Part shown: one piece after another, positions 1,641 to 49,341 of the stretch | Position numbering within the stretch: position 1 is the stretch's first letter | Layout: each line of letters opens with the position of its first letter | Sequence record: OQ850291 | From: Escherichia phage vB_EcoS_ULIM2 | DNA: 51,534 nucleotides | Strand: one strand, 5' to 3' | The notes under the pieces: generated by a model | The model's input: the letters and a program-made list of their open reading frames with translations, nothing else | Told to the model about the DNA's origin: nothing | Database searches by the model: none | Program-made: the position numbers and the translations under genes

Positions 1641-1677
1641 TGTAAAATCATCCTATCAACTTTATTCACTTAACTTT

Positions 1678-1692
1678 TAACAAAAAGTGCTA
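1678..1692 (-). promoter_or_regulatory. Conserved palindromic box (TAGCAC-N4-TGTTA) in leftward orientation
   Basis: Reads TAACAAAAAGTGCTA on the plus strand, 24 nt before the chaperone ATG; a TAGGAT -10 candidate lies 22 bp to the left (1650-1655). Confidence 0.4.
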
Positions 1693-1714
1693 TCAACCAA
1701 TCAGGAGAAACATC

Positions 1715-17738: not shown

Positions 17739-17814
17739 AGTATAAACTCCTTAAGTAAATAGCACGAATTGCTAAGCACTGATTTTATCATTGTGCTATG
17801 AGTCTTGCAATGGT

Positions 17815-18835: not shown

Positions 18836-19288
18836 TTAACTAAAAATGCTATTGGTCGTTCCGATATCTTCCTTCTTCACAACCCGCATGAATTTCTTGT
18901 TCTTGCATCGCTTCTCAAGGCACTTGCCGTTACCATCAAACTTGAGGTCGAATCTCAGCCATGCTGCGCGGTATCCTTTACACCCCTGTCGGCGGTAAGC
19001 GCGATGCGCAGCCTCAGCACCTTGCCACGAAATCATGTTGCGTTCTTTCCAGCCTTGCACCGTCTGATTTGTTACTTTTAGTGCCTTTGCGCATGCCGCA
19101 GGGCCACCATAATATTCGATAAGCGCATCAAGTCGTGCTCGCAATCCAGCGCGTGTTTCTTCTTTATGAATATAGAATCCGCAGCGCTGTCGTGGCTTTT
19201 TGTCTTTACCGCGTCGAGTTCCGTTGTTACCATTGATGTGACGTTTATCGATTTCACCAGTTGACTCCGCGATGCGTTGAATACTCAT
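18836..19288 (-). CDS. Putative DNA-binding protein with Cro/YdaS-like helix-turn-helix (150 aa)
   Basis: AKALKVTNQTVQGWKERN resembles Cro/YdaS-type HTH; basic termini; a palindromic box lies in its leader. Confidence 0.45.
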   Translation of the reverse strand: MSIQRIAESTGEIDKRHINGNNGTRRGKDKKPRQRCGFYIHKEETRAGLRARLDALIEYYGGPAACAKALKVTNQTVQGWKERNMISWQGAEAAHRAYRRQGCKGYRAAWLRFDLKFDGNGKCLEKRCKNKKFMRVVKKEDIGTTNSIFS

Positions 19289-19301
19289 CTTGATTCTCCT
19301 A

Positions 19302-19344
19302 TAGCACTTTTTGCTAAAAACGTTTACTGTATGCCGTGTATTAT
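19302..19344 (+). promoter_or_regulatory. Box-type promoter for the helicase operon
   Basis: TAGCAC (19302-19307), TTGCTA (19311-19316), 22-bp spacer, TATTAT (19339-19344), enclosed by inverted repeat CGTTTAC/GTAAACG. Confidence 0.5.
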
Positions 19345-19368
19345 AGCGTAAACGCTACAATGATTCAA
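19340..19368 (-). promoter_or_regulatory. Sigma70-type promoter for the HTH gene, face-to-face with the helicase promoter
   Basis: Minus strand TTGAAT (19363-19368), 17-bp spacer, TATAAT (19340-19345); the -10 overlaps the plus-strand -10 by 5 bp. Confidence 0.5.
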
Positions 19369-21400: not shown

Positions 21401-21813
21401 TTACAGACAAAGGTGATTATTTAGAGTTTTACGAACGAGATCCTAGCGATACGAGAAAGGAGGATGCTCATCAAGTTGATTGTGTGTCTTGGCTGAAATA
21501 CAATTTCCCTCACCTTCTATTTTGGCACACAGTTAATGAAGGTGAAAAAACAATCACGTCGGCGCTCAGGGATGAGCAGGCCGGATTACTTAAAGGCGTG
21601 TCAGACTTCGTTATCCTGATTGGCGTCAACTCACGATACCCGTTTGCAGCAATCGAACTCAAGCGGGTTAATAAGTCAGGCAAAGGAAAGGCGTCACCAG
21701 TCAGCGACAAGCAAAGGGAATTTCTCCGAAAGGTCCGGGAGCGTGGCGGCTTCTCTGCCGTCGCATACGGATTCGAGCAATTCAAGATCGCAATTTACGA
21801 AATTATGAAATAG
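21397..21813 (+). CDS. VRR-NUC-like nuclease domain protein (138 aa)
   Basis: SDFVILIG ... AIELKR resembles the D..E.K core of VRR-NUC/PD-(D/E)XK domains; follows the helicase gene. Confidence 0.5.
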   Translation: MITDKGDYLEFYERDPSDTRKEDAHQVDCVSWLKYNFPHLLFWHTVNEGEKTITSALRDEQAGLLKGVSDFVILIGVNSRYPFAAIELKRVNKSGKGKASPVSDKQREFLRKVRERGGFSAVAYGFEQFKIAIYEIMK

Positions 21814-21853
21814 CACTTTTTGTTAAAACTGCCGGAATGGAATCTGGCATTAT
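21811..21853 (+). promoter_or_regulatory. Box-type promoter for the methyltransferase gene
   Basis: TAGCAC (21811-21816), TTGTTA (21820-21825), 22 bp, CATTAT (21848-21853). Confidence 0.45.
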
Positions 21854-22594: not shown

Positions 22595-22842
22595 TGAGCG
22601 AAAAAATGGTTCCTGTTAAATTAACTGAGCAAGGTTTATGGCTTCTTTATCGCGCTACGTGCTGCGAAATTATGGAGCAAAACGGATTGACTCAGGATGT
22701 TATTGGTTGCGATCTGTGGGAGTTCACTATTTCTCTTGATATGTCTTTCGATGAGATAAAAAATGAATATATCGAGCGTTGGCCTTCAATTATCCAGAAA
22801 GACGTAGAGGAACTTAAAGCAGATACGATCGTACAGCACTAA
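22591..22842 (+). CDS. Hypothetical protein (83 aa)
   Basis: ATGA overlap with the methyltransferase stop; AAGGAAAG RBS. Confidence 0.5.
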   Translation: MMSEKMVPVKLTEQGLWLLYRATCCEIMEQNGLTQDVIGCDLWEFTISLDMSFDEIKNEYIERWPSIIQKDVEELKADTIVQH

Positions 22843-22876
22843 TTGCTAAAAATACCCGGCGAAAGTCGGGTATAGT
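22835..22876 (+). promoter_or_regulatory. Box-type promoter
   Basis: CAGCAC-N3-TTGCTA (22835-22848), 22 bp, TATAGT (22871-22876), leader CATCGAAACGAAATGAGGAA. Confidence 0.5.
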
Positions 22877-23118: not shown

Positions 23119-23368
23119 GCGCGAAGTGTGGGAGCACGCAAAGGAATGCGGCATCTCAGACGATATAGCATTAATTGCTAAATACTTTGATATAAAGGAT
23201 GTTAGCATTATCTCAAACGGCAAGATTTCATTTATGGAAGATATGCCGAGAAAAATGCATAGAGTTCCAGCAACTCCATCACTTGAGTTTTACCGCGAAG
23301 AGGGAAAGAGAATTGAGAGAGAAAGAAAATCCACAAAAAACGGAAAGTCTTCCAGGCTTAAATATTAA
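23096..23368 (+). CDS. Hypothetical protein (90 aa), overlapping the next ORF
   Basis: ORF-track ORF; N-terminal half looks protein-like, C-terminal half is purine-rich low complexity. Confidence 0.3.
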   Translation: MLIKKQGKREVWEHAKECGISDDIALIAKYFDIKDVSIISNGKISFMEDMPRKMHRVPATPSLEFYREEGKRIERERKSTKNGKSSRLKY

Positions 23369-23678: not shown

Positions 23679-24830
23679 ATGTCACAAGCTAAAATCACTA
23701 CCGAGCAACTCGTCGAAGAGCGCATGAACGGCCTTACACTTCGAGAGATCGCGGAAAAGTACGGTATGCACATTCGCACTGTCGAGGCGCGTCACGCAAA
23801 ACTTGCAAAAGAAGGCCACTTCCACGGTAACGAGCATGTTGCTAAAAACGTGCCGGAAGGATTCATGGTAAAAGGTACATCAACGATGATTCGCGGAGAT
23901 GGGACCGAGGTAGTTCGCTGGGTTAAGACCGATCAGGACCGTGAGAAGATTGCGGCAATGATGGAAGCGGCGCGTATTGCATTCTGTGAAGACCTGCCTC
24001 GAGCAAAACCAACTGAGCTACTAACATCGCAAGGACTTACGACAGCGATGGGTAAGCTGGCGCTCTATCCGGTATTCGATCTCCATATTGGCGCGCTTGC
24101 TCATAAGCATGAGTGCGGAGAGAACTACTCTACCGACGTAGCGGAAAAAGTGCTTGGCGACTTCTTCAATTATGCGATCGATATTGCGCCGAACGCAGAG
24201 AAGGCTGTTCTGTTAATCGGCGGCGACTTCCTTCACTCTGACGGCCTTGACGCTGTTACCCCGGCAAGTGGTCACGTTCTAGATCAGGATTCACGATATG
24301 CGAAATTAGTGCATGTTGCGATTCGTTCGGTACGCCGAGCCATCGACAAAATGCTTATGAAACACAAAGAAGTCGAGGTTCAGGTTATCGAAGGGAACCA
24401 CGATCAGTCTGGGATGATTTGGCTGCGCGCTGCAATGTCGGCATATTATGAAGACGAGCCGCGAGTATTCGTTGACGTTAGTCCTATGATTCTGCATAAG
24501 ACTCGTTGGGGAAATACCTTGTTGGGATACACTCACGGTCACACTATGAAAAAGGCAGACACGCGACTTGCGGCAATGGCGGCAGATTTCCGATCAGACT
24601 TCGGTGAGAGCAAGTATGTGTATACTCATAGCGGTCACTGGCATCACCAGACAATCACTGAGCACTCACTCGGTATTGATGAGGTTCACGGCCAGTTAGG
24701 CGCGAAAGATGCATACGCAGCACGCGGAGGGTGGCGCTCATATCGCCAGGCGGCTGTAATTGTTTACGATAAGCAGTTTGGGGAAATCGGTCGTTTCATC
24801 TATCGTCCAGAAATGACAGGATCGCACTAA
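23679..24830 (+). CDS. Calcineurin-like metallophosphoesterase (383 aa)
   Basis: Phosphoesterase motifs in order: DLH, GDFLHSDG, GNHD, GHT, GHWHH. Confidence 0.6.
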   Translation: MSQAKITTEQLVEERMNGLTLREIAEKYGMHIRTVEARHAKLAKEGHFHGNEHVAKNVPEGFMVKGTSTMIRGDGTEVVRWVKTDQDREKIAAMMEAARIAFCEDLPRAKPTELLTSQGLTTAMGKLALYPVFDLHIGALAHKHECGENYSTDVAEKVLGDFFNYAIDIAPNAEKAVLLIGGDFLHSDGLDAVTPASGHVLDQDSRYAKLVHVAIRSVRRAIDKMLMKHKEVEVQVIEGNHDQSGMIWLRAAMSAYYEDEPRVFVDVSPMILHKTRWGNTLLGYTHGHTMKKADTRLAAMAADFRSDFGESKYVYTHSGHWHHQTITEHSLGIDEVHGQLGAKDAYAARGGWRSYRQAAVIVYDKQFGEIGRFIYRPEMTGSH

Positions 24831-24864
24831 TTGATAAAAACGCCCGAATGGATTCGGGCATAGT
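24823..24864 (+). promoter_or_regulatory. Box-type promoter
   Basis: TCGCAC-N3-TTGATA (24823-24836), 22 bp, CATAGT (24859-24864) within inverted repeat CGCCCGAATGG/GATTCGGGC; leader CATCGAAAACGAAGAGG. Confidence 0.45.
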
Positions 24865-26558: not shown

Positions 26559-26601
26559 AATATACCCGATACGAGATCGGGTGTTTTAACAAAAAGTGCT
26601 A
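26559..26601 (-). promoter_or_regulatory. Box-type promoter (leftward)
   Basis: Minus strand TAGCAC-N4-TGTTA (26587-26601), 22 bp, TATATT (26559-26564) inside inverted repeat CCCGAT/ATCGGG. Confidence 0.5.
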
Positions 26602-26710
26602 TTTGTATCTTTTGACATGGAGAAGCAACTCCCCCTCCTGGTCGCAAAGATTATGCTCTCTGTCGCCGTTGGCCCTCATTGAAGTGAGCAGCAGACTCAA
26701 CAATCCTTGT

Positions 26711-27118: not shown

Positions 27119-27122
27119 ATTA

Positions 27123-28691: not shown

Positions 28692-28720
28692 CACAATAAA
28701 CTCCTTAGTTGACGGTGTGA

Positions 28721-28763
28721 ATGATACACCGCCAATGGTACACGCGTTTTGCAAAAAGTGCTA
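28721..28763 (-). promoter_or_regulatory. Box-type promoter (leftward) for the ATPase gene
   Basis: Minus strand TAGCAC-N3-TTGCAA (28749-28763), 22 bp, TATCAT (28721-28726). Confidence 0.45.
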
Positions 28764-28767
28764 TTGG

Positions 28768-29184: not shown

Positions 29185-29263
29185 TGAATATCTCCTGATT
29201 GGTTATCTTGAACAAGGCCACTTTAACAAATGACCTTGCGGCAATATTAACAAATCGTGCTAT

Positions 29264-29476: not shown

Positions 29477-29480
29477 TAAA

Positions 29481-29705: not shown

Positions 29706-29738
29706 TTTTAATTCCTTTATTTCGTTTGGTGTAGGAGT

Positions 29739-29782
29739 AATATACCTTACTCCATATTTATTGTCTTTAGCAATTAGTGCTA
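29739..29782 (-). promoter_or_regulatory. Box-type promoter (leftward)
   Basis: Minus strand TAGCAC-N3-TTGCTA (29768-29782), then TATATT (29739-29744) within inverted repeat GGAGTA/TACTCC. Confidence 0.45.
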
Positions 29783-29922
29783 TCAGTACTCGGAAATTAC
29801 TTTACACTCTTTGATTGTTCCACCTAGAACTACTTTCTGCATCATTGCTTTTTGGTGGCTATCGTAAACGCGAACATTTTTTACGCTGTTAAATTTGCCA
29901 GTATAGAAAGTGTGAATATAAA

Positions 29923-30246
29923 TCATTTTTTACCGTCCCAGGTTTGATACGCCGTTACAAGGTTAATGCTATGGTCGAACTCGTCAATGCTAAGCGATCC
30001 GATTCGAACCAGTTCTTTGTCATGCTTGATATCAATCATCCGACTGTACGGATGGCCTGGCACGTATTTGAACAGTCGTTTGCTGTCGGCAATATCAGCG
30101 TTTATTCCGTAGAATCGGCCCACCGCCGCCTTAACGCGCTCCATGATGTTTTTTTCGTGGATTGCTGCCGCGTTATTCAGTGCGACTACCGTACTTCCGT
30201 TAATCTTCGGTGATTTCGTTGTGATTTTGTAAGTGTGGTTCATCAT
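29923..30246 (-). CDS. Hypothetical protein (107 aa)
   Basis: Tandem ATG ATG at 30246 preceded by AGGGGG RBS just after the upstream stop. Confidence 0.45.
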   Translation of the reverse strand: MMNHTYKITTKSPKINGSTVVALNNAAAIHEKNIMERVKAAVGRFYGINADIADSKRLFKYVPGHPYSRMIDIKHDKELVRIGSLSIDEFDHSINLVTAYQTWDGKK

Positions 30247-30259
30247 TCCCCCTAACCAG

Positions 30260-30460
30260 TCAGGATAGATTTCGCGCTTCATCAATGATAACAGGCTCAA
30301 GGCGTTCAAGTCGAACGCGGAACGAGTTCATAAATCCTTCGTTGTTCCTCAGTAGTTCGAATGCGTCTGTAGCTTCAATTGCGCTATTTCCCATGTAGGC
30401 AACTACGCTCTTTTGCGTCTTGCGTGAGATCGCCACAACGCGGTAAATATTATCACTCAT
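30260..30460 (-). CDS. Hypothetical protein (66 aa)
   Basis: ATG at 30460 overlaps the upstream gene's stop by 8 nt. Confidence 0.4.
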   Translation of the reverse strand: MSDNIYRVVAISRKTQKSVVAYMGNSAIEATDAFELLRNNEGFMNSFRVRLERLEPVIIDEARNLS

Positions 30461-30824
30461 ACAATGCCTCCTTGACTCGATCCGCAATGCGGGAGTTGAC
30501 GGTGATTGAGTAGTTAGCCACGCCCCATAATGCAATATTGCCAAGCTCGGTACGCATAGATGGATTGTTAAGTTGAATGATTGTCTCGCCAGTATCGTCA
30601 TCTACGAAACGAGACACGCCAAAACGGTCCACCACGCGCGTTACACGGTTCACGCACTCCATTGCATCACTTACGCCGTAATAAGCGCTCAGAGCGGCTC
30701 TCACGGCCTTCTCTTGCTTGTTGTAAATCTTGCGCGCGATGTTCTCGATCGCCACGCTTTCTTTCTCGTCAGTCTGGATTGCAGTGCTGGCTGAAAAGTC
30801 CAGATCTGTGAACTGATTAAACAT
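30453..30824 (-). CDS. Hypothetical protein (123 aa)
   Basis: ATG at 30824 preceded by leader CCATCAACAGCGAGCGAGGAAAG and a box-type promoter. Confidence 0.5.
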   Translation of the reverse strand: MFNQFTDLDFSASTAIQTDEKESVAIENIARKIYNKQEKAVRAALSAYYGVSDAMECVNRVTRVVDRFGVSRFVDDDTGETIIQLNNPSMRTELGNIALWGVANYSITVNSRIADRVKEALYE

Positions 30825-30855
30825 GATTCTTTCCTCGCTCGCTGTTGATGGGGTG

Positions 30856-30898
30856 ACTATACCAGCCATCCCGGATGCGCGTTTAGCAAAAAGTGCTA
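30856..30898 (-). promoter_or_regulatory. Box-type promoter (leftward)
   Basis: Minus strand TAGCAC-N3-TTGCTA (30884-30898), 22 bp, TATAGT (30856-30861). Confidence 0.5.
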
Positions 30899-31060
30899 TT
30901 CGATAACTTCCTTTGGAACGACCTTGATCTCATCAAAGAAGTTAGTCCTGTCATTCTCAGTGAGATTCTTGATCTCGTTAGCTTTGCTCTCGGTCGAGCA
31001 TATCTCGATCAGTTCGTCACCTTCATAGTAGATTGCTCCCACCACGCAATATACGATCAT
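30896..31060 (-). CDS. Hypothetical protein (54 aa)
   Basis: ATG at 31060 with AGGAG RBS; start uncertain because the predicted -10 of the box at 31085-31099 would overlap it. Confidence 0.35.
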   Translation of the reverse strand: MIVYCVVGAIYYEGDELIEICSTESKANEIKNLTENDRTNFFDEIKVVPKEVIE

Positions 31061-31102
31061 AAACTTTTCTCCTGGGTTAGTTATTAACAAAAAGTGCTAT
31101 AC

Positions 31103-31207
31103 TCAGCGACCAACTGCATCCATAATGATTAAGAACATGATCGCGACCAGGCATCCTGACAGAGAGAAAAGCACCGATCCCATTGCATAATTAAAAAACT
31201 TTGTCAT
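31103..31207 (-). CDS. Small hydrophobic membrane peptide (34 aa), not in the ORF track
   Basis: ATG at 31207 five nt after AGGTGG; translation MTKFFNYAMGSVLFSLSGCLVAIMFLIIMDAVGR; coupled to the upstream gene. Confidence 0.45.
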   Translation of the reverse strand: MTKFFNYAMGSVLFSLSGCLVAIMFLIIMDAVGR

Positions 31208-31209
31208 AA

Positions 31210-31440
31210 TTACCACCTGAAACTATCGATAGTGTCATTAATGTACTTCACCTGGGCCTCTACGTCGGACGTGGCAATGTACTGGAAAGTGTCGTAATCT
31301 TCCCAAAGGTCGACAATCTCAACCTTAGTATGATGCTCTTTCAAGCCTCCCATGTGACCATAATGCGTACGGTAGACGATGAATCCCTCATTACTTGCTC
31401 GCTGGATTGCTTTCTTTAAACCTGGGTGCTTTATTGCCAT
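31210..31440 (-). CDS. Hypothetical protein (76 aa)
   Basis: ATG at 31440 preceded by the AACCAATCAGGAGAA leader. Confidence 0.5.
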   Translation of the reverse strand: MAIKHPGLKKAIQRASNEGFIVYRTHYGHMGGLKEHHTKVEIVDLWEDYDTFQYIATSDVEAQVKYINDTIDSFRW

Positions 31441-31471
31441 CCTGTCATTCTCCTGATTGGTTGATGTGTTC

Positions 31472-31514
31472 ACTATACCCCGATTCCCTTCGGGGAGTTT
31501 AGCAATTCGTGCTA
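31472..31514 (-). promoter_or_regulatory. Box-type promoter (leftward)
   Basis: Minus strand TAGCAC-N3-TTGCTA (31500-31514), 22 bp, TATAGT (31472-31477) within inverted repeat CCCCGAAGGG/AATCGGGG. Confidence 0.5.
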
Positions 31515-31850
31515 TTAAGCAATGTCGAACTCAGCGGCATATGCTTCCTTGATGCCAGCTTCACGCATGGTGCGCTTGCTGATTTTGCGCGGGAATTTGT
31601 ACTGACTGTTAGGCATAACCCACCAGAAGCAGGCAGTTTCACGAACGATTTCATATTTACCGTAACGGGTGAATATATCGCGTTCTGAATCCGGCTGATT
31701 AACACAGGTCAGGAATTTAGCTGCCTTGTCTTCAGTTTTGATTTCTTCCCATACGAAAGAATCCATACCGTTAACATTGCAAGCTACCATGATGTACTCA
31801 ACGCCGTTTTCGATTTTGATGATTTCGTTACCGCGATTTTCGTATTTCAT
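31515..31850 (-). CDS. Hypothetical protein (111 aa)
   Basis: ATG at 31850 preceded by CAGGAGCAGGAAA RBS region and leader CATCGAAACGAG. Confidence 0.5.
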   Translation of the reverse strand: MKYENRGNEIIKIENGVEYIMVACNVNGMDSFVWEEIKTEDKAAKFLTCVNQPDSERDIFTRYGKYEIVRETACFWWVMPNSQYKFPRKISKRTMREAGIKEAYAAEFDIA

Positions 31851-31888
31851 TTTCCTGCTCCTGATGTTTATCTCGTTTCGATGAAGTA

Positions 31889-31931
31889 ATAATACCCCAT
31901 CGTGAGATCTGGCGTTTAGCAATTCGTGCTA
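31889..31931 (-). promoter_or_regulatory. Box-type promoter (leftward)
   Basis: Minus strand TAGCAC-N3-TTGCTA (31917-31931), 22 bp, TATTAT (31889-31894). Confidence 0.5.
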
Positions 31932-31932
31932 T

Positions 31933-32019
31933 TTAACCCATCCTTTCAATTACAAGGAGCATTACCCAAACCGCTAAGACTAACTGCATCATCATAGCTA
32001 ACAAAAAGAACTTATTCAT
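31933..32019 (-). CDS. Small hydrophobic membrane peptide (28 aa), not in the ORF track
   Basis: ATG overlaps the TGA of the upstream gene (ATGA); GAGGAA RBS 7 nt upstream; translation MNKFFLLAMMMQLVLAVWVMLLVIERMG. Confidence 0.4.
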   Translation of the reverse strand: MNKFFLLAMMMQLVLAVWVMLLVIERMG

Positions 32020-32831
32020 ACTGATTCCTCACTGGCGAATACCTCGCAAGATTCACTGCATGAGCCTGTGTCGAATGATTTTGCCCCACGAACCCTTGCG
32101 GCTACCTCATCCCTCGACTGTGGAAACATCTGTATAATGTCACCGAGTGAGCGCCTTCCTCTGTACATGTCAGATGAAGACTCTTTCTTGTTGTGCTCAC
32201 TGATTGTGTTAATGAATAGCCTTGCAAGCTCCGGCTCATCCTTACAAGCAAGAGCTAGCTTGAGTTCTGACTTCTTGATGCAGAAAACGCAGTTACCAAG
32301 GTGTTCATCAATCCCAAGATCGAAAGGCATGTCACGCCAGAAGTTGATAACGTCCTGCTTATCAAAGTCAGATATGTCTGCAAGGTAACTGAACCCATCA
32401 GCTGCCTTTAATCTCTTTGGCTCATCCGCACGAATGCCAATCCATCGCTGATAATTACCCTTGCCATACTTCTTCTCGCAATACTTTTCAAATGGCTTAG
32501 TCTTCATCCTGTTTGTACAGAATGCACCTCCCTGGTATGGATTTCCGTACTTCCTTAGCATTCTTATCCACCCAACAAGATCGTGATGAATATCGTCCAC
32601 GCTTACAACTTCGAATGATGGGGTTCCGCGGAACTTATCGCTTGGCAAGCATCTTAAGCAAGTTATACCCCTGGGAATCATTGACGATACATTTCGAATA
32701 AACTCATAAGTCATTGGATGTTCTGCGCCAGTGTCCATGTAAATAACCTCAGCGTCAGGATAAATCTTGAGAACCTCAAGTGTCATGTATGCCGAAGTCC
32801 TGCCACCACTAAAACTAATTACCTGATTCAT
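32016..32831 (-). CDS. PP-loop ATPase of the PAPS-reductase-like family (271 aa)
   Basis: N-terminal ISFSGGRTSAYM PP-loop (SGGxxS) motif; ATG at 32831 with AGGGG RBS; the track ORF (to 32900) runs through its promoter. Confidence 0.55.
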   Translation of the reverse strand: MNQVISFSGGRTSAYMTLEVLKIYPDAEVIYMDTGAEHPMTYEFIRNVSSMIPRGITCLRCLPSDKFRGTPSFEVVSVDDIHHDLVGWIRMLRKYGNPYQGGAFCTNRMKTKPFEKYCEKKYGKGNYQRWIGIRADEPKRLKAADGFSYLADISDFDKQDVINFWRDMPFDLGIDEHLGNCVFCIKKSELKLALACKDEPELARLFINTISEHNKKESSSDMYRGRRSLGDIIQMFPQSRDEVAARVRGAKSFDTGSCSESCEVFASEESV

Positions 32832-32865
32832 TTCGACCCCTATCTGTGAGCTAAATAACAACTGC

Positions 32866-32909
32866 ATAATAGCCAATCCTCCGCTACTGGTCGTTAGCAA
32901 AAAATGCTA
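32866..32909 (-). promoter_or_regulatory. Box-type promoter (leftward) for the PP-loop gene
   Basis: Minus strand TAGCAT-N4-TTGCTA (32895-32909), 23 bp, TATTAT (32866-32871). Confidence 0.45.
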
Positions 32910-33099
32910 TTCCAATAATTGCTCATTATTCCATCAATTGTGGAATATGTGGAATAATTCTGATTGTTATTGATTGCGAATGACGAAACGTGATTATTGC
33001 ATGATGTGCAACAGTTGGTTGATTTGTTGATGAGAACGCAATGATTGTTAGAGGGAGGATCTGGTGTTGCCCGGCTCGCCTGGTAGTCATCTCCATTTT

Positions 33100-33114
33100 T
33101 AGCAAAAAGTGCTA
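33100..33114 (-). promoter_or_regulatory. Second palindromic box upstream of the PP-loop gene, no obvious -10
   Basis: TAGCAC-N3-TTGCTA on the minus strand; the position 22 bp downstream is not -10-like. Confidence 0.35.
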
Positions 33115-33391
33115 TCGATTACGATTATGCTTGATTGTGTGTTAATCCATGTATATGATTTGCATAAATCGCAATCGTAGACAAAATTACACCAAATTAC
33201 GCCCTATAATATACATATAGATATATGTATATATATAATATATAAGTGTTTTTTTATTTATATATATAGATACTATTATTTGTAATATGGCTGTATAGCG
33301 TGTCTACTATGTTAATCGTTGGATGCTCTGGTTATGATATTCATGTTTATATATACAGTAGTTTTATCGGCTCATATTTATATGGGAAAAG

Positions 33392-33418
33392 CGATTAACA
33401 CGATTAACACGATTAACC
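33392..33418. repeat. Three tandem copies of a 9-bp unit (CGATTAACA)
   Basis: CGATTAACA CGATTAACA CGATTAACC read directly, inside the AT-rich divergent region. Confidence 0.6.
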
Positions 33419-33442
33419 ACACTTAAAATCGGCTCGCGAGCA

Positions 33443-33494
33443 TTGACACAAGCGGGTCGCCGTGTAACACTACGATTAGAGACACAGTGTTACA
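33443..33494 (+). promoter_or_regulatory. Candidate rightward promoter with operator-like inverted repeat
   Basis: TTGACA at 33443-33448; perfect inverted repeat TGTAACACT (33463-33471) / AGTGTTACA (33486-33494); the -10 is weak (TAACAC), so the promoter call is tentative. Confidence 0.35.
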
Positions 33495-33532
33495 TGTTAA
33501 TCATGGTGTATATTGAAAATGAGGAGAAAGAT

Positions 33533-34108
33533 ATGAGTTCTTACCAATCAGACGCAGTGCAGGCAGCAATTCAGGCGGCTTACGAGAAATCTGGCGTGAC
33601 CGTTGAGAAGCGCCAGGAGGCAAAAGTGACCGATGTTATCCGTGCCGCTTGCGATCAGCTTTATGGTGATGGCGAGAATACCGAGTTCACATTCGATGCT
33701 ATTCAGATGGCTGAGGCAGCAGTAAGAAAGTCAGTCCCTGACGCTGATGATGATACCGTTAGCGGATATGCCGAATCCTGGTTGCTCGGGAAGACGGAAG
33801 AGATTAACGAGAAGTTTAAATCATCATTCATCACCCCGATCGTATCGCGCCACTTCTCCAAGATCGGCAAGTCGGTCAAGGTGAGCGTAACCATGAACGA
33901 TGAGAAGTTGCGAGTCGTTACTATCTCAGTGAGTGACGAAGAAGTTCCGGTGAAGAAGCGCCGCAGTCGGAAAAAAGTTAGCCTGGCTGATTGCCTGGAT
34001 TCGTTTGTGGTTGATGTGGGTAAACTGGCTGATAGCGAATTGATGACTCGTGACGTAAACGAGATCGTTCGCCAGATGAAGGCGCATATCGAAAAATGTG
34101 GATTATAA
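33533..34108 (+). CDS. Hypothetical protein, first gene of the rightward accessory block (191 aa)
   Basis: ATG at 33533 with GAGGAG RBS; the track ORF (from 33443) overlaps the promoter region. Confidence 0.5.
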   Translation: MSSYQSDAVQAAIQAAYEKSGVTVEKRQEAKVTDVIRAACDQLYGDGENTEFTFDAIQMAEAAVRKSVPDADDDTVSGYAESWLLGKTEEINEKFKSSFITPIVSRHFSKIGKSVKVSVTMNDEKLRVVTISVSDEEVPVKKRRSRKKVSLADCLDSFVVDVGKLADSELMTRDVNEIVRQMKAHIEKCGL

Positions 34109-34120
34109 GGAGAGGTGACT

Positions 34121-34450
34121 ATGTTTACTAATATGTTTGATCCGAAGGTGATGGAAAGACGAAAACTGGAAAGTGAGAAGCAGGAAGAGAACATCAAGAA
34201 GATAGCTGATGCCGTGACTGGTAAAAAATTAATCAAAGTAAACCTTAATACCATTGGCTCAGCGTACGACGTAAGAGGTCTTGGCAAGAAAGAGGCGTCA
34301 GTGAAGGTTCTTAGGCTTATTCACGAAATTAAGAATCAGTACAAGATAACCCTAAAGATGAAAAGCCTTGAGGTTCCGCACTGTGAGCTTGTGAACATCA
34401 CGGAGCCGGAAGGGTGGGAAATAACCGACGTCGAGTTTATCGTAGAATAG
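34121..34450 (+). CDS. Hypothetical protein (110 aa)
   Basis: ATG at 34121 with AAGGAGAGG RBS. Confidence 0.5.
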   Translation: MFTNMFDPKVMERRKLESEKQEENIKKIADAVTGKKLIKVNLNTIGSAYDVRGLGKKEASVKVLRLIHEIKNQYKITLKMKSLEVPHCELVNITEPEGWEITDVEFIVE

Positions 34451-34490
34451 CACTTTTTGTTAAAACCGGATCGGGATAACCTGGTATAGT
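34448..34490 (+). promoter_or_regulatory. Box-type promoter
   Basis: TAGCAC (34448-34453), TTGTTA (34457-34462), 22 bp, TATAGT (34485-34490); perfect 8-bp inverted repeat GGGATAAC/GTTATCCC (34473-34496) around the -10. Confidence 0.55.
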
Positions 34491-34521
34491 TATCCCATCA
34501 ACAACGAATGAGGAAGCGAAG

Positions 34522-34716
34522 ATGGAAACGCAAATTGACGTAGTGGTTGTTCAGCGCGATTCAACTCACGAAAAGGGTCTGTTCAAGAAAGGAACCGAAA
34601 TCACGATCGACCTTGAGGACATGGTTGCGTATCACTCGGGTCTGACCTGGAATGTGGTGCGAGTTGGCAGCGACTACAAACTCAAAGGCTTTAACACTTA
34701 CTTTGCTGAGGCTTAA
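34522..34716 (+). CDS. Hypothetical protein (64 aa)
   Basis: ATG after leader CATCAACAACGAATGAGGAAGCGAAG. Confidence 0.5.
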   Translation: METQIDVVVVQRDSTHEKGLFKKGTEITIDLEDMVAYHSGLTWNVVRVGSDYKLKGFNTYFAEA

Positions 34717-34718
34717 TC

Positions 34719-35189
34719 ATGACGACCATTACCGTATTTCTGGCTAAAGATAATGTTGATGGCGCTATGTCATTCTTCGCGTTCGAGCATGAAGCCGGAT
34801 CGCACTGGCATATGTACACTCATTACACGGTCATCTCAATTGAGGCTTACGACGGCGATTTGCTCACTGACAAGCTGAGTAATTTTATTGATGTGGTTAA
34901 GGATAACGACGGCTGCGAATGGAAAGAAGATAACGAAGTTATGCGAATGTTTGATATGGTCAATCCGGTTCGCCTTGTATCTTTTGAGCTTGGTTCTGAT
35001 GTGACCGTTGAGGTGAGAAAGGCTGGTGAGTTATTGCCAGGAATGCGTGTGCTGACTGGTTACTCAGGTCGTAAGGTATGGCGCACTGTATCTAAGGTTC
35101 GCCAGCGTTCGGCAACTTGCTATAGCATACACTTTGAGGATGGTTGGAACGAGGTCGCCGGAAGCGGCGTGAAGTATCTCACCAAATAG
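34719..35189 (+). CDS. Hypothetical protein (156 aa)
   Basis: ATG 3 nt after the upstream stop. Confidence 0.5.
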   Translation: MTTITVFLAKDNVDGAMSFFAFEHEAGSHWHMYTHYTVISIEAYDGDLLTDKLSNFIDVVKDNDGCEWKEDNEVMRMFDMVNPVRLVSFELGSDVTVEVRKAGELLPGMRVLTGYSGRKVWRTVSKVRQRSATCYSIHFEDGWNEVAGSGVKYLTK

Positions 35190-35229
35190 CACGAATTGTT
35201 AAAACCGGATCGTGGCATCTTGATATAGT
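35187..35229 (+). promoter_or_regulatory. Box-type promoter with an unusually long leader
   Basis: TAGCAC (35187-35192), TTGTTA (35196-35201), 22 bp, TATAGT (35224-35229); about 170 nt of repeat-containing leader before the ATG at 35408. Confidence 0.5.
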
Positions 35230-35263
35230 TACTCCATCGAAACGCTTCGGGGCAAACCCAAAA

Positions 35264-35362
35264 GAAGGAAGCGGCAAACGTAGACCGGAGCCGTGCAAAC
35301 CTCGAAGCAAATTGACTTGGGAAAACCCATTAGGAAGGAAGGGGCAAACGTAGACCGGAGCC
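35264..35362 (+). repeat. Two direct repeats of about 29 bp in the leader
   Basis: GAAGGAAGCGGCAAACGTAGACCGGAGCC (35264-35292) and GAAGGAAGGGGCAAACGTAGACCGGAGCC (35334-35362); further GCAAAC copies at 35252 and 35295. Confidence 0.6.
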
Positions 35363-35407
35363 TCGTAACCCCAAGTTAAAAATGATGTACCAATCAGAGG
35401 AATCACC

Positions 35408-35671
35408 ATGTCAATCGTCAAGAACCGTAACGCAATAGAAGCAACACGCCACAACAAGCAACACGCGATATTCATTGCTCGCTACTGCTCAAACATCAAT
35501 GGTGGCGTGCAGTATCGCCGCTATGCAGTGATTGAGATTTCACCATACATTTACAAGGAGTATCTCGAAGAAAACGGTAAGTGGGTTGAGATCGAAGGTG
35601 TAACGAGCTTCTTGATCTGGAACGGTGAATTTCAGGGTTATGACGATATCAGCACTTTAATTGAGGAGTAA
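35408..35671 (+). CDS. Hypothetical protein (87 aa)
   Basis: ATG preceded by the ACCAATCAGAGGAATCA leader. Confidence 0.5.
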   Translation: MSIVKNRNAIEATRHNKQHAIFIARYCSNINGGVQYRRYAVIEISPYIYKEYLEENGKWVEIEGVTSFLIWNGEFQGYDDISTLIEE

Positions 35672-35676
35672 TAATC

Positions 35677-35904
35677 ATGCCACGTTACAGCAACCTAACT
35701 CAACTAACCCGCGTCAACGGGCACATGATTCCGGCAAAATCCACTCACTACGCAATTGGCGCAAAACACGGATTATATTTCAAGTGGCGCGGTCAATGGA
35801 ACTTCACAGCGGTGAGTAATTTCTACATGCGCGTTCCTGGCGATGACCCGCAATCGGTAGTAGAAAACTCAATCGGTGACAACAAGATCGAGGTGATGAA
35901 ATGA
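35677..35904 (+). CDS. Hypothetical protein (75 aa)
   Basis: ATG with GAGGAG RBS. Confidence 0.5.
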   Translation: MPRYSNLTQLTRVNGHMIPAKSTHYAIGAKHGLYFKWRGQWNFTAVSNFYMRVPGDDPQSVVENSIGDNKIEVMK

Positions 35905-36011
35905 ACTTCAATACAATTGCCTTATGGTCTGCCGTCTGGTTCTTCTGCATGGGTCATGCCATTGTTGGGATCGTAATCATGTTACTACTGTGTGCCGGAG
36001 CGTTTGAATGA
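35901..36011 (+). CDS. Small hydrophobic membrane peptide (36 aa), not in the ORF track
   Basis: ATGA overlap with the upstream stop; translation MNFNTIALWSAVWFFCMGHAIVGIVIMLLLCAGAFE. Confidence 0.4.
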   Translation: MNFNTIALWSAVWFFCMGHAIVGIVIMLLLCAGAFE

Positions 36012-36181
36012 TGCGCATTCTAATTTGCATGATGGCGGCAGTCGCCATAACTATCCTGGTTGTGTCCGGCTGCGGAGAGGTAAAAGAGCGATGTCATGAA
36101 ACCGGGAACCAGGTTACTACGTTCGTGATGGTCGGCAACGTATTGCTACCAATCACATCAAATGAAATCACTTGCGAATAG
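36008..36181 (+). CDS. Small putative lipoprotein (57 aa), not in the ORF track
   Basis: Overlaps the upstream stop; signal-like N-terminus MMRILICMMAAVAITILVVSGC with lipobox VSGC. Confidence 0.4.
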   Translation: MMRILICMMAAVAITILVVSGCGEVKERCHETGNQVTTFVMVGNVLLPITSNEITCE

Positions 36182-36221
36182 CACCTTTTGTTAAAACTCA
36201 ATTCCGGGGTTGCGATATAGT
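36179..36221 (+). promoter_or_regulatory. Box-type promoter
   Basis: TAGCAC (36179-36184), TTGTTA (36188-36193), 22 bp, TATAGT (36216-36221) within inverted repeat GGGGTT/AACCCC. Confidence 0.5.
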
Positions 36222-36252
36222 AACCCCATCGACAACGAACGAGGATACAAAC

Positions 36253-36741
36253 ATGAAAATCAAATTACTTTGCACTGGCGGTTACAAAGGCTTTACTCGC
36301 GACCTGGAAGCTGACCCTATCGTGGTTGACGCTGTGAAATGTGATGATAGCCTCGGCGGCTACCGTGTCAAAGTGGAAGACCTGGTGAAAGCTGGCGTGT
36401 ACGATCTGGACTATGGCCTATCGATTAGCCCGGTATTCGGTCCGGCAGACTTCAACGAGAAGGACGGAACTATGTTCTTTTTTGAATGGGAAGTTCAAGC
36501 GAACGTCAAGCCGCGCAAGGTTCGACTTCTCAACAATGGCGGCTACCCGATGATACCAGGTTATGAGAATCGCACGTTCCCAGTTATTGTGGACTTCACC
36601 GAAATCACTAACAACCTGGTCCGCGTCAGCAATGAGCATCTCAAGGCTGTAGGATTCACTGGCGGTATACATAAAGAGGGTTTGTGCTTCGTTCTCGAAG
36701 AAATGCACGGTTACTATCCTGAGTGCGAGTTAGTTTACTAA
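36253..36741 (+). CDS. Hypothetical protein (162 aa)
   Basis: ATG at 36253 after leader CATCGACAACGAACGAGGA. Confidence 0.5.
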   Translation: MKIKLLCTGGYKGFTRDLEADPIVVDAVKCDDSLGGYRVKVEDLVKAGVYDLDYGLSISPVFGPADFNEKDGTMFFFEWEVQANVKPRKVRLLNNGGYPMIPGYENRTFPVIVDFTEITNNLVRVSNEHLKAVGFTGGIHKEGLCFVLEEMHGYYPECELVY

Positions 36742-36782
36742 GCACGAATTGTTAAAAGGGGATTTGGCCTGACTGGTATAAT
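36740..36782 (+). promoter_or_regulatory. Box-type promoter
   Basis: AAGCAC-N3-TTGTTA (36740-36754), 22 bp, TATAAT (36777-36782) within inverted repeat GGGGAT/ATCCCC. Confidence 0.5.
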
Positions 36783-36812
36783 CCCCACATCAACCACTAA
36801 TAGGAAATCATC

Positions 36813-37319
36813 ATGTTAAAATTAGAAGACGTAAAATTCCCGATTAAGTTTATCAGCAATGGTTGCGGTGAAATTACATTCGCCAGTGAAGATAAGGGCA
36901 AATGGGCCACTGATGAGGTGTCTGAGCTTAAGTTGGATTGGTTTATCGCCAGACATAACGAAGTGAATCAAGAAAATTCACCCAATAAGGACTACTACTA
37001 CATTATGAGTGGCGGTCAGGGTGTGAAAGGCATGTTTGATGGCTGGAAGATTGAAGGCTCTGTTTTCCGTTCTGAAAAGCCAGAAATCAAGCCAATGCTA
37101 CAGTGTACTCAGATCGAGAACATGCCATTGAGCGCCACGATAAAAGGCGTTCAGATTAGCGATGAATCATGGATCGAGATTACCGCCACGCCTAAAACTA
37201 TTGAGGTACATGATGATGTGGTGATTCTCCTGTTGCATTACGGCAGCTTTAAGCACAAGACTGTATCAGGTGAAATCAGCATTAAGCGCGGAACGCTTGT
37301 ACGATACGAGGTGAAATAA
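36813..37319 (+). CDS. Hypothetical protein (168 aa)
   Basis: ATG with AGGAAA RBS. Confidence 0.5.
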   Translation: MLKLEDVKFPIKFISNGCGEITFASEDKGKWATDEVSELKLDWFIARHNEVNQENSPNKDYYYIMSGGQGVKGMFDGWKIEGSVFRSEKPEIKPMLQCTQIENMPLSATIKGVQISDESWIEITATPKTIEVHDDVVILLLHYGSFKHKTVSGEISIKRGTLVRYEVK

Positions 37320-37468
37320 TGACGGCGTGGATTTTGATTATCTTGATGAGTACCGGGGCGGATCACGTATACATGAACAGCCAGCAATCATGCAACGAGG
37401 CTCAGGCAGTTATTGCAGAGAATAAGCCGTTCGGGTACGAAGTGAAAACGATGTGTGTTAAAAAATAG
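37319..37468 (+). CDS. Small protein with hydrophobic N-terminus (49 aa), not in the ORF track
   Basis: TAATG overlap with the upstream stop; translation begins MTAWILIILMSTG. Confidence 0.35.
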   Translation: MTAWILIILMSTGADHVYMNSQQSCNEAQAVIAENKPFGYEVKTMCVKK

Positions 37469-37508
37469 CACGAATTGCTAAACCTTCCGCAAGGCCATTT
37501 GATACAGT
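37466..37508 (+). promoter_or_regulatory. Box-type promoter
   Basis: TAGCAC (37466-37471), TTGCTA (37475-37480), 22 bp, TACAGT (37503-37508) within inverted repeat GGCCA/TGGCC. Confidence 0.5.
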
Positions 37509-38635: not shown

Positions 38636-38838
38636 CCGCAGAAGATGCAGCACGTGACGCAGTGGAAGGAATGCGACCAAATACGTCCAGAATCGCCCAC
38701 TGCTACAAATTTGATGTGTCGGCAGTGCAGTTGGTACACGAAATTTTAAGGCTCCCACAAGTCGATTCAGCGCGCGTGGTGACGTGCTTAAAAAATTATT
38801 TTTGCATCACTATTAAAACGAATAGCACGAATTGCTAA
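38620..38838 (+). CDS. Hypothetical protein (72 aa)
   Basis: ORF-track ORF with GGGGG RBS; its 3' end runs into a box-type promoter. Confidence 0.4.
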   Translation: MATIMTAEDAARDAVEGMRPNTSRIAHCYKFDVSAVQLVHEILRLPQVDSARVVTCLKNYFCITIKTNSTNC

Positions 38839-38865
38839 AACTTACTCAAGGGTATTTGATAGAAT
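38823..38865 (+). promoter_or_regulatory. Box-type promoter
   Basis: TAGCAC (38823-38828), TTGCTA (38832-38837), 22 bp, TAGAAT (38860-38865). Confidence 0.5.
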
Positions 38866-39749: not shown

Positions 39750-40322
39750 ATGAAAACAGCTATCATTTTAAACGGCGCACCAGGAGTGGGTAAGGACACT
39801 ATCGGATGCATCCTGGCCGATACTTACGAGCACGTAGCGCTCCGCAGCTTCAAGGCTCCGATGTTTGATATTGCCCGAGCAATATTGGGTGAGGCTAATT
39901 TCGAATATTTCATGTTCTTGTATGAGGACCGTCGCTATAAAGAAGAACCAGCATCAATCCTGAACGGTAAAAGCCCGCGCCAGTTTATGATCTGGATTAG
40001 CGAAGAAGTCATCAAGCCGCAGTTCGGAAATCGCTTCTTCGGCATGCGAGCGGAAAGCAAGGTGAAAGAGTCTCACTCTCTTTCGGTATTTACTGACGGT
40101 GGATTCAAAGACGAAGTTTTGCAGATGATTGAAGGTGATATCCAGGTCAAGCTATGTCGAATCCATCGCAACGGTTGCAACTTTGACAACGACAGCCGCG
40201 ACTATATCTATCTTGACGATATGATTGGGGTCAACGGTTATCAGGAATGTGACTTCTTTTCTGTCGAAGGCCATCCAGAAATTACCGCTCAGCACATAGC
40301 CGCCACGTTCATCAATAAATAG
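39750..40322 (+). CDS. P-loop nucleotide kinase, dNMP kinase-like (190 aa)
   Basis: N-terminal GAPGVGKDT P-loop, as in phage deoxynucleoside monophosphate kinases (T4 gp1 has SGKDT). Confidence 0.5.
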   Translation: MKTAIILNGAPGVGKDTIGCILADTYEHVALRSFKAPMFDIARAILGEANFEYFMFLYEDRRYKEEPASILNGKSPRQFMIWISEEVIKPQFGNRFFGMRAESKVKESHSLSVFTDGGFKDEVLQMIEGDIQVKLCRIHRNGCNFDNDSRDYIYLDDMIGVNGYQECDFFSVEGHPEITAQHIAATFINK

Positions 40323-40362
40323 CACGAATTGCTAAAACGTCGGTGGGGTGATTTGATATAGT
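40320..40362 (+). promoter_or_regulatory. Box-type promoter
   Basis: TAGCAC (40320-40325), TTGCTA (40329-40334), 22 bp, TGATATAGT ending at 40362. Confidence 0.55.
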
Positions 40363-42122: not shown

Positions 42123-42146
42123 TGGTAAAATAGCACTAAATGTTAA
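42123..42146 (+). promoter_or_regulatory. Late promoter candidate with the palindromic box downstream of the -10
   Basis: TGgTAAAAT at 42123-42131 followed immediately by TAGCAC-N4-TGTTA (42131-42146); TerS ATG at 42164. Confidence 0.4.
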
Positions 42147-42163
42147 ACAAAGAGGATGGATTT

Positions 42164-49297: not shown

Positions 49298-49318
49298 CAT
49301 AAAAACACTTTAACGCTT

Positions 49319-49333
49319 TAACAAAAAGTGCTA
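49319..49333 (-). promoter_or_regulatory. Palindromic box in leftward orientation at the end of paralog B
   Basis: Reads TAACAAAAAGTGCTA on the plus strand; candidate -10 TATACA 22 bp to the left. Confidence 0.35.
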
Positions 49334-49341
49334 TTATTGAA

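Follow-up and report, generated by a model that had tools for sequence, protein, structure and literature searches.

Repeated intergenic modules of a T1-like phage carry a sequence matching the consensus marbox of MarA, SoxS and Rob

The focal module and its copies

Sequence record OQ850291 (Escherichia phage vB_EcoS_ULIM2) was analysed over its full length of 51,534 nucleotides, hereafter called the window, with respect to a short box that recurs between its genes and forms the upstream end of a compact promoter module. The window represents a T1-like phage (Drexlerviridae, Tunavirus) with about 90% identity to vB_EcoS_SA30RD. A total of 26 distinct TAGCACnnnTTG(C/T)TA sites were identified in it. 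These boxes span both divergent early arms (26.3-33.1 kb leftward and 33.4-42.1 kb rightward) and are also found in the replication/lysis block (19.3-25 kb), and two further copies lie in the late region, antisense to the late genes. As set out below, the box with its flanks corresponds to the 20-bp marbox of the host regulators MarA, SoxS and Rob. The focal module is located at 34447-34521 and comprises the following features, listed together with the gene that it precedes:

34447..34466, plus strand: 20-bp marbox ATAGCACTTTTTGTTAAAAC, containing the 15-bp box at 34448-34462
34467..34484, plus strand: marbox-to--10 gap of 18 bp (equal to 22 bp from TTGTTA), with AAAACC at the -35 position and no -35 hexamer
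34482..34490, plus strand: extended -10 element TGGTATAGT, with TG at -15/-14 and TATAGT at 34485-34490
34473..34496, plus strand: inverted repeat GGGATAAC (34473-34480) / GTTATCCC (34489-34496) around the -10, -13.2 kcal/mol
34497..34521, plus strand: predicted transcription start at A 34497 (CATC context) and short conserved leader ATCAACAACGAATGAGGAAGCGAAG with a Shine-Dalgarno sequence
34522..34716, plus strand: gene of the focal promoter (ATG 34522), matching Pfam PF25180 "phage antiviral trigger protein Gp54" with E = 5e-36

In the focal marbox, GCAC represents the A site and TAAA the B site, while the TAG of the box (34448-34450) doubles as the stop codon of the open reading frame (ORF) at 34115-34450. 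The inverted repeat would form a hairpin in sense RNA reading through from upstream.

A first-pass annotation of this sequence had claimed about 25 copies of the box, all of which were found within 1 bp of the coordinates it gave; one more copy, at 23166, was absent from its list. When up to two mismatches were allowed, TAGCACNNNTTGCTA yielded 38 matches (the 26 distinct sites) compared to 4.06 +/- 2.42 in shuffled sequences. The fixed distance between box and -10 was likewise confirmed, with an xAnnnT hexamer situated 22 bp past TTG(C/T)TA in 19 of the 26 sites and 23 bp past it in two, and five copies were counted as having no usable -10 (17760, 31085, 33100, 42131 and 49319). The aligned copies share an A 5' of the box and AAAAC 3' of it, followed by a spacer without conserved sequence. 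The -10 hexamers include TATAGT, TATTAT, CATAAT and similar sequences, often preceded by TG and nearly always by a G at -14. Five bases past the -10 lies CATCGAAACGA, with a pyrimidine-purine pair at the expected transcription start, and the module ends with a Shine-Dalgarno sequence and a start codon approximately 76 nt from the box. At the other end, the stop codon of the upstream gene abuts or overlaps the box in most copies, and the TAG of the box itself serves as the stop codon in at least seven.

Relatives were collected by an exact-pattern scan of viral contigs, which returned about 120 loci on contigs of mostly 40-55 kb. From these loci 394 unique modules were taken, of which the 300 with an in-register -10 were used for the -10 and hairpin statistics. 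A comparison with related T1-like genomes had been proposed in the first-pass annotation, and the box was indeed present in them. Across the 394 modules, information peaks in fixed, ungapped columns that correspond to the box, AAAAC, the G at -14, the -10 hexamer and CA. Relative to the start of the box the hexamer is found at +37 and the CA at +48/49, and the spacing is therefore fixed across the whole family. Since the spacer carries almost no information and yet has a fixed length, its length rather than its sequence appears to be under selection. Among the 300 modules, the commonest hexamer was TATAGT and the commonest start context CATC, with a G at -14 in 85% and a TG in 48%. The same box and spacing were also found in Klebsiella Webervirus Sin4, Cronobacter Kyungwonvirus CS01, Yersinia phage YP10S2 and phage Vc1. 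Taken together, these observations support the earlier proposal that a single promoter class serves most non-structural genes of the phage.

Marbox identity and promoter geometry

Judged by its sequence, the phage box is a consensus marbox of MarA, SoxS and Rob. Box and flanks read ATAGCACnnWTTGYTAAAAC, which fits the 20-bp marbox AYnGCACnnWnnRYYAAAYn, a consensus that reportedly goes back to Martin et al. 1999. The common phage variants, the focal marbox included, match 13 of its 14 specified positions, a value equal to that of micF. This consensus was then compared with published definitions of the marbox, i.e., the search pattern GCAnnWWnTGnnAAA of the Grainger laboratory (PMC12052159) and the consensus given as gcactaattgctaaa (PMC5684230). 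The search pattern, applied without mismatches, identified 23 sites in the window compared to 1.02 +/- 0.97 in shuffles, and 22 of these 23 were boxes. Two copies, at 22834 and 29768, reproduce the published consensus exactly. A matrix was built from 33 MarA sites determined by chromatin immunoprecipitation sequencing (ChIP-seq) in E. coli H10407 (Table 1, PMC5684230). On this matrix all 26 phage boxes scored above the native median (13.0 bits) and 21 of them above the 75th percentile; the focal marbox reached 17.7 bits. Four boxes are identical to native sites (yneO, pheP, grxA<>ybjC) that were bound by purified MarA at 0.3 uM, the lowest concentration tested. The first-pass annotation had not recognised the box as a known host-factor site, a view that can no longer be held given the agreement of pattern, consensus and ChIP-site matrix.

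The variation among the copies follows the same consensus. The positions that vary in the phage are the degenerate ones of the marbox, as the C/T in TTGYTA corresponds to Y14 and the third base of the N3 segment, which is always A or T, to W. Copies that break the palindrome of the box (TCGCAC...TTGATA, AAGCAC, TTGCAA and TAAATGTTA) are perfect marbox fits, because their changes hit positions that the marbox leaves free.

The promoter geometry was found to be that of a class II activator-dependent promoter. The first-pass annotation had correctly deduced that 22 bp exceeds the spacing of a sigma-70 -35/-10 pair, so that a class II activator has to be considered, and the centre of the box, at about -40.5 to -42, does fall at the position of such activators; the micF soxbox is centred at -41.5 (PMC9638938). 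Class II promoters of this system are described as having a forward marbox that overlaps the -35 region with its centre near -41, the -35 hexamer being absent (PMC12052159, PMC9638938, PMC10268841). Every phage copy with a -10 has GCAC distal and AAA proximal to the -10, i.e., a forward marbox, and the marbox-to--10 gap measures 18 bp in 19 copies and 19 bp in two. The same 18 bp separate the 20-bp marbox from the -10 in four promoters of E. coli K-12 (NC_000913.3), for which the -10 elements were assigned from the sequence in this analysis, with an annotated start for micF only:

micF: marbox ACAGCACTGAATGTCAAAAC, gap 18 bp, -10 TAGAAT
nfo: gap 18 bp, -10 TATCAT
sodA: gap 18 bp, -10 TATAAT
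inaA: gap 18 bp, -10 TATAGT

Of these four, nfo, sodA and inaA are known as class II promoters, and the class II status of micF is backed by the literature cited above. A further promoter, fumC, was not used as support because its -10 is ambiguous (18 or 19 bp). Under the 18-bp geometry the phage GCAC occupies -47 to -44, and in the cryo-electron microscopy structure of Rob, RNA polymerase and micF, residues of Rob contact G-47 and A-45 (PMC9178005). The phage -35 position, 17 bp 5' of the -10, reads AAAACn and has at most three of six matches to TTGACA, similar to micF. Canonical sigma-70 promoters showed no excess at 17000-36900 of the window, with 32 matches compared to 36.5 in shuffles.

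Several other identities of the box were considered and rejected. TTGCTA as a true -35 would require a spacing shorter by 5 bp than the 22 bp present, and no -10-like hexamer occurs 17 bp downstream of it. Compared to the sigma-54 promoter (TGGCAC-N5-TTGC), which requires a distance of exactly 10 bp between GG and GC, the box TAGCAC-N3-TTGC has AG for GG and is 2 bp short. Some copies show the CCCCAT of sigma-32 promoters after the -10, but no TTGAAA at the required distance. A UP element, consisting of A/T tracts from -59 to -38 contacted by the alpha C-terminal domain, was discarded as the information is highest in GCAC and TG and the register is off the UP-element consensus. The sites of IHF, Fis, CRP and FNR did not fit, nor did that of SlyA (TTAGCAAGCTAA), which has the same half-site core but a different spacing.

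The remaining copies of the box are given below, starting with the replication/lysis block and the two early arms:

17759..17778, plus strand: box copy with one mismatch (AAG) and no -10, in the tail-fibre/primase intergenic region
19301..19320, plus strand: marbox of the helicase promoter, -10 TATTAT at 19339-19344, inside the leader of the divergent helix-turn-helix (HTH) gene
21810..21829, plus strand: marbox of the Dam methylase gene (ATG 21881), -10 CATTAT at 21848-21853, its TAG being the stop codon of the upstream ORF
22833..22852, plus strand: marbox whose 15-mer GCACTAATTGCTAAA equals the published consensus and the yneO MarA site, -10 TATAGT at 22871-22876, hairpin entirely in the spacer
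23165..23184, plus strand: marbox GCATTAATTGCTAAA, equal to the grxA<>ybjC MarA site, 18 nt 5' of ATG 23199, no usable -10
24821..24840, plus strand: marbox ATCGCACTAATTGATAAAAA, -10 CATAGT at 24859-24864, its departures from the palindrome on free marbox positions
26583..26602, minus strand: marbox, -10 TATATT at 26559-26564, spacer hairpin
28745..28764, minus strand: marbox, TTGCAA variant, -10 TATCAT at 28721-28726, 5' of a putative helicase gene
29244..29263, minus strand: marbox with one mismatch (AAT), -10 TAAAGT at 29220-29225
29764..29783, minus strand: marbox equal to the consensus 15-mer, -10 TATATT after a 19-bp gap
30880..30899, minus strand: marbox, -10 TGGTATAGT with its hexamer at 30856-30861
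31081..31100, minus strand: box-only copy, Shine-Dalgarno sequence and ATG immediately 3', no -10
31496..31515, minus strand: marbox, -10 TATAGT at 31472-31477, CCCCGA/TCGGGG hairpin within the spacer
31913..31932, minus strand: marbox, -10 TATTAT at 31889-31894
32891..32910, minus strand: marbox GCATTTTTTGCTAAC, -10 TATTAT after a 19-bp gap; the downstream gene aligns with the Dcm-like methyltransferase gene of phage LeonhardEuler
33096..33115, minus strand: box-only copy bordering the AT-rich region that separates the divergent gene blocks
35186..35205, plus strand: marbox, -10 TGATATAGT with its hexamer at 35224-35229
36178..36197, plus strand: marbox, -10 TATAGT at 36216-36221, enclosed by the GGGGTT/AACCCC hairpin
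36739..36758, plus strand: marbox, AAGCAC variant, -10 TGGTATAAT with its hexamer at 36777-36782
37465..37484, plus strand: marbox, -10 TGATACAGT with its hexamer at 37503-37508
38822..38841, plus strand: marbox, -10 TGATAGAAT with its hexamer at 38860-38865
40319..40338, plus strand: marbox, -10 TGATATAGT with its hexamer at 40357-40362
42130..42149, plus strand: box-only copy GCACTAAATGTTAAA, equal to the pheP MarA site, just 5' of the Shine-Dalgarno sequence and ATG of the small terminase gene

The two copies opposing the late genes are:

1674..1693, minus strand: marbox with TGATAGGAT at the canonical distance, hexamer at 1650-1655
49315..49334, minus strand: marbox just upstream of the major capsid gene, with TATACA, lacking the final T, at the canonical distance

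Three of the box-only copies, at 23165-23184 (plus strand), 31081-31100 (minus strand) and 42130-42149 (plus strand), are located 18-24 nt before a start codon and just 5' of its Shine-Dalgarno sequence; they may be truncated cassettes or have a role other than in a promoter. The copy at 1678, with its good TGATAGGAT, would be predicted to produce an antisense transcript, and this arrangement (1674-1693) is retained in the relatives L040, L111 and L117. The position upstream of the capsid gene is kept in Yersinia phage YP10S2 and Cronobacter phage CS01 (loci L125, ~30950, minus strand, and L124, ~13242, plus strand), and in these capsid-upstream boxes a defective hexamer without the final T (TATACA, TAGACC or TATACC) is found at the canonical distance. 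Read in reverse, on the strand of the late genes, the capsid-upstream box gives TGCTATTAT, which is itself an extended -10.

Two other regions of the window attracted attention. The stretch at 33115-33440, between the divergent early blocks, is extremely AT-rich with TATATA runs, and contains three tandem copies of ACGATTAAC (~33397-33423) and a promoter-like site TATACA-18-TATAAT (33210-33239); an origin, a packaging site or immediate-early promoters may be situated here. In the late region, 7800-7886 (plus strand) comprises a terminator hairpin with a T-run, then CTGTATAAT and a leader with half a marbox (AAATAGCACAAAAAGG), with a tail-tip gene next, and could represent a late promoter with a remnant of the box.

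The reader of the box, the hairpins and the alternatives

A phage-encoded reader of the box, as considered in the first-pass annotation, appears unlikely, since no AraC/XylS-type protein was found in the ORFs searched. With MarA and SoxS as queries, phmmer against all six-frame ORFs returned a best E of 1.2, and Pfam scans of 40 non-structural ORFs revealed no AraC-type domain. Box and spacing remain unchanged in Webervirus, Kyungwonvirus, the Yersinia phage and Vc1 while the phage proteins fall to 45-55% identity. The constancy of the box among phages infecting Escherichia, Klebsiella, Cronobacter and Yersinia finds its best explanation in a conserved host protein as the reader. The obvious first candidate is Rob, on account of its high constitutive expression (PMC9178005).

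The three hairpins quoted in the first-pass annotation are all present (GGGATAAC/GTTATCCC at 34473-34480/34489-34496, GGGGTT/AACCCC and CCCCGA/TCGGGG). Its statement that the -10 usually lies inside the hairpin holds for some copies but not for those at 22834, 24822, 26587, 31500 and 21811, where the stem-loop is located in the spacer and ends at the -10. The mean folding energy of the 300 modules was -12.2 kcal/mol compared to -5.9 kcal/mol in shuffles (mean z -2.85, with 70% at z < -2). The stems fill the interval from the end of the marbox to the start site, their 3' arm commonly ending either at the -10, with the whole hairpin in the spacer, or at -1, with the -10 enclosed, and some of the predicted pairings run on into the leader. 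The sense strand was the more stable one in 208 modules versus 90, whereas composition-matched shuffles favour the antisense strand (286 versus 602), which argues for selection on RNA reading through from the upstream gene and not on DNA. The ten nucleotides after the stem contain on average 1.05 T for stems ending beyond the -10 and 3.3 T for stems ending at the -10. Only three modules pass a terminator scan; the SA30RD record annotates several of the hairpins as terminators.

The modules are probably class II marbox promoter cassettes read by host MarA, SoxS or Rob. From the marbox identity, promoter geometry, family conservation and strand bias of the hairpins, which are read directly from the sequences, we infer binding, activation, start site and hairpin role as follows. 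The marbox ATAGCACnnWTTGYTAAAAC would occupy, in forward orientation, the usual place of the -35, where the two HTH motifs of a single AraC-family activator monomer from the host would enter GCAC (A site) and YAAA (B site). The bound activator would contact the alpha C-terminal domain and region 4 of sigma-70, and thereby RNA polymerase would be recruited to a promoter that lacks a -35 and often has an extended -10 (G at -14, TATAGT/TATAAT) 18 bp downstream, with transcription predicted to begin at the conserved A of CATC. Candidate activators are Rob, which is constitutive, MarA or SoxS when induced, and RamA in Klebsiella. The variable inverted repeat would act at the RNA level, in read-through transcripts of the upstream gene, most likely as an attenuator or as a protective 3' structure insulating each cassette, as in the PeSL elements of T4-type phages (see below). 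The conserved cassettes also appear to double as junctions for the exchange of gene modules between phages.

A number of points weigh against this explanation. At the free positions of the marbox (TT before G, T after Y and the leading ATA), the phage boxes vary less than the native sites do, and position 19 of the marbox is A and not Y in the phage, as it is in micF. This surplus uniformity may have arisen by gene conversion between cassettes or by adaptation to one particular paralogue, or it may reflect a second reader, possibly encoded by the phage. About half of the modules have a full TGn extended -10 and could fire without an activator, and the five copies without a -10 imply that the box may have a non-promoter role. 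Most hairpins have no U-tract, with about one T in the next 10 nt, which makes classical intrinsic (rho-independent) termination unlikely. With regard to the exchange of modules, 23 of 71 homology breakpoints between the window and the approximately 120 related loci fall in modules, compared to a coverage of 9.8% (p = 1.5e-7) and many of them exactly at the box edge, an enrichment that is confounded because the modules sit at gene boundaries. The levels of MarA and SoxS are low when these regulators are uninduced. Rob is mostly sequestered and inactive under standard conditions, and is freed from this state by bile salts, fatty acids or dipyridyl (PMC10268841, PMC9178005). Finally, no binding, start-site, transcriptome or genetic data for T1-like phages were found in the searchable literature.

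The alternative closest to the first-pass annotation treats the box as a palindromic operator that would be bound by a dimeric regulator of the phage itself, either a class II activator or a repressor. The following gene and its promoter are relevant here:

18836..19288, minus strand: Cro-like HTH protein of the T1 gp23 family, the candidate regulator of the first-pass annotation
19340..19368, minus strand: near-consensus sigma-70 promoter TTGAAT-17-TATAAT of the HTH gene, overlapping the helicase promoter on the other strand

In favour of such an operator, one helical turn separates the half-sites TAGCA and TGCTA, with an A/T-rich centre between them. The HTH gene belongs to the core genes of the family, with 824 phage records, and possesses its own promoter and a box in its leader, which would permit autoregulation. 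The near-palindrome, however, is already a property of the consensus marbox gcactaattgcta, an asymmetric site that a single protein molecule occupies. The orientation of the box strictly tracks transcription, asymmetry is evident at its conserved positions (C6 and T10; flanks AAA versus AAAAC), and the departures from the palindrome respect the marbox. The HTH match itself scores 24.4 bits, under the curated Pfam threshold of 30.2. The putative recognition helix reads QTVQGWKER in one phage and RLTNAYRLR in another with an identical box, and a search for co-variation of HTH protein and box in Webervirus, Kyungwonvirus, the Yersinia phage and phage Vc1 found the box unchanged. We consider this operator unlikely and retain it mainly because of the excess conservation of the box at marbox-free positions; the HTH protein probably regulates something, but is most likely not the reader of the box. 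As regards the regulator family, its best-conserved part is not the HTH but a basic segment at the N-terminus that is rich in Gly and Asn, STGEIDKRxINGNNGTRRGKDKKPR. In this segment 12 residues are invariant, while identity over the rest of the proteins is 42-60%. A T1-type HTH regulator also occurs in 20 records labelled Campylobacter phage and in one labelled Vibrio phage (Vc1), the latter bearing marbox modules as well.

Three further explanations are less probable still. The boxes could act mainly as a decoy, about 26 top-affinity marboxes multiplied by replication soaking up MarA, SoxS and Rob and shutting down the host response, which is compatible with promoter cassettes read by these proteins. 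It is true that a genome of 51.5 kb holds 26 sites above the median of 33 MarA ChIP sites from a 5-Mb genome, and that several copies (17760, 23166, 31085, 33100 and 42131) are without a -10; a decoy, however, needs neither fixed spacing, nor orientation, nor a -10, while 21 of the 26 copies have all three in a geometry that is conserved in the family, which makes a mainly decoy function improbable. We give an equally low probability to a box that works without an activator, either as a UP-like or enhancer element touched by RNA polymerase alone or as a repressor "stoperator", ideas that were put forward in PMC11447400. Such a box would be in keeping with the A-tracts beside it and with the ability of extended -10 promoters to function without a -35, but it would leave the base-for-base match to a known activator site, at the right distance, as a coincidence, and a stoperator would not need one fixed distance to the -10. 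The least probable of all, and hardly to be expected, is a box acting as RNA, in which a 5-bp hairpin UAGCA/UGCUA would end the upstream message and be read by a nuclease or RNA-binding protein. Here either base of the C/T variation can pair with G (G-C or G-U), the loop would take up the variable N3, the upstream stop codon is abutted or contained in most copies, and the neighbouring hairpins are selected on the sense strand; the exact -10 distance is nevertheless left unexplained, the C/T site is the Y position of the marbox, and the variants 24822 and 28749 break the stem without compensation.

Significance and relation to known systems

More tentatively than the reading of the modules as class II marbox cassettes, and with somewhat less than even confidence, we propose that the early/middle gene programme of Drexlerviridae might be wired to the host mar/sox/rob system. 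Rob, MarA, SoxS or RamA would then drive the development of the phage or fine-tune it, and replicating genomes with about 26 marboxes each could drain these regulators from defence and efflux genes. If so, a large family of virulent enterobacterial phages would depend on, or be tuned by, host multidrug-resistance regulators, and its development would be sensitive to bile salts, fatty acids, salicylate, oxidants and antibiotics. Compounds that induce MarA, SoxS and Rob, among them salicylate, bile, paraquat and certain antibiotics, should in that case alter phage gene expression. Phages of this family are notorious contaminants of laboratories and fermentations as well as candidates for therapy, and the modules, if they act as proposed, would also offer compact, insulated and activator-responsive promoter cassettes for practical use.

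A 21-nt intergenic direct repeat, aaATAGCACnnnTTGnTAAAA, has already been reported in TLS, T1, Rtp and Rogue1, and its function was left open by the authors, who suggested a stoperator, enhancer or UP element (PMC11447400). This repeat is the same element as that in the window, with a like orientation and a like distance to the start codon (~76 nt). PMC11447400 draws no connection to a -10, a marbox or hairpins, whereas these are linked in the present analysis, and the class II marbox reading turns the repeat into a concrete and immediately testable hypothesis. Full-text literature searches, which covered papers outside paywalls, found no publication that connects the marbox of MarA, SoxS and Rob with T1-like phages. 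This kind of promoter is known and the repeat has been described, so it is the linking of the repeat to the marbox that appears to be new.

The arrangement of the modules resembles the PeSL cassettes of the T4-type phages RB49 and phi1, which consist of a stop codon, a promoter, a stem-loop between or over the promoter elements and a Shine-Dalgarno sequence, and in which the stem-loops attenuate upstream transcription and the cassettes mediate the exchange of gene modules (PMC2839356). The phage modules show the same layout, i.e., a stop codon, a promoter with an embedded stem-loop, a Shine-Dalgarno sequence and ATG, repeated between small genes. The likeness extends to the stem-loop, often GGGG...CCCC with G-T pairs, to the -10, to the position beside small genes without assigned function and to the coincidence with mosaic junctions. 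PeSL promoters differ in being of the usual sigma-70 type, complete with a -35 and preceded by AT-rich sequence, where the phage modules have a marbox in place of the -35. Minicircles and terminator activity have been demonstrated for PeSLs, while the phage modules are known here from their sequence. A complete T1-type cassette (marbox, GGGG/CCCC hairpin, TATAGT, CCCCATCGAAAC, Shine-Dalgarno sequence and ATG) was observed in IMGVR_UViG_648019609_000001, a contig of 174,436 bp and thus on the scale of T4-type genomes (L067, ~10040-10085, minus strand), and a partial one in a viral contig of 176,788 bp (L066, ~8234-8300, plus strand). Their presence suggests the transfer of cassettes between phage families.

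The middle promoters of T4 combine a good -10 and no -35 with a MotA box near -30, and the phage-encoded activator and co-activator (MotA and AsiA) displace or remodel region 4 of sigma-70. The modules of the window likewise form a promoter class of a phage in which a good -10 goes together with a missing -35 and with an upstream box for an activator. In contrast to T4, this box matches a site for a host activator and has its centre near -41, and the ORFs searched revealed no phage homologue of the activator.

Among the closest known counterparts are the class II mar/sox/rob promoters of E. coli, which like the phage modules have a forward 20-bp marbox over the -35 with GCAC and YAAA elements, a gap of 18 bp and no -35 hexamer; inaA even shares the TATAGT. 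Between the micF marbox ACAGCACTGAATGTCAAAAC and the focal phage marbox ATAGCACTTTTTGTTAAAAC, 15 of 20 bases are common, the terminal AAAAC included. Unlike the scattered and degenerate sites of E. coli, about 20 near-consensus copies occur in a single 51-kb genome of a virulent phage, and the phage modules differ further from the E. coli class II promoters in their frequent extended -10, their conserved start region CATCGAAACGA and the RNA hairpin embedded in them.

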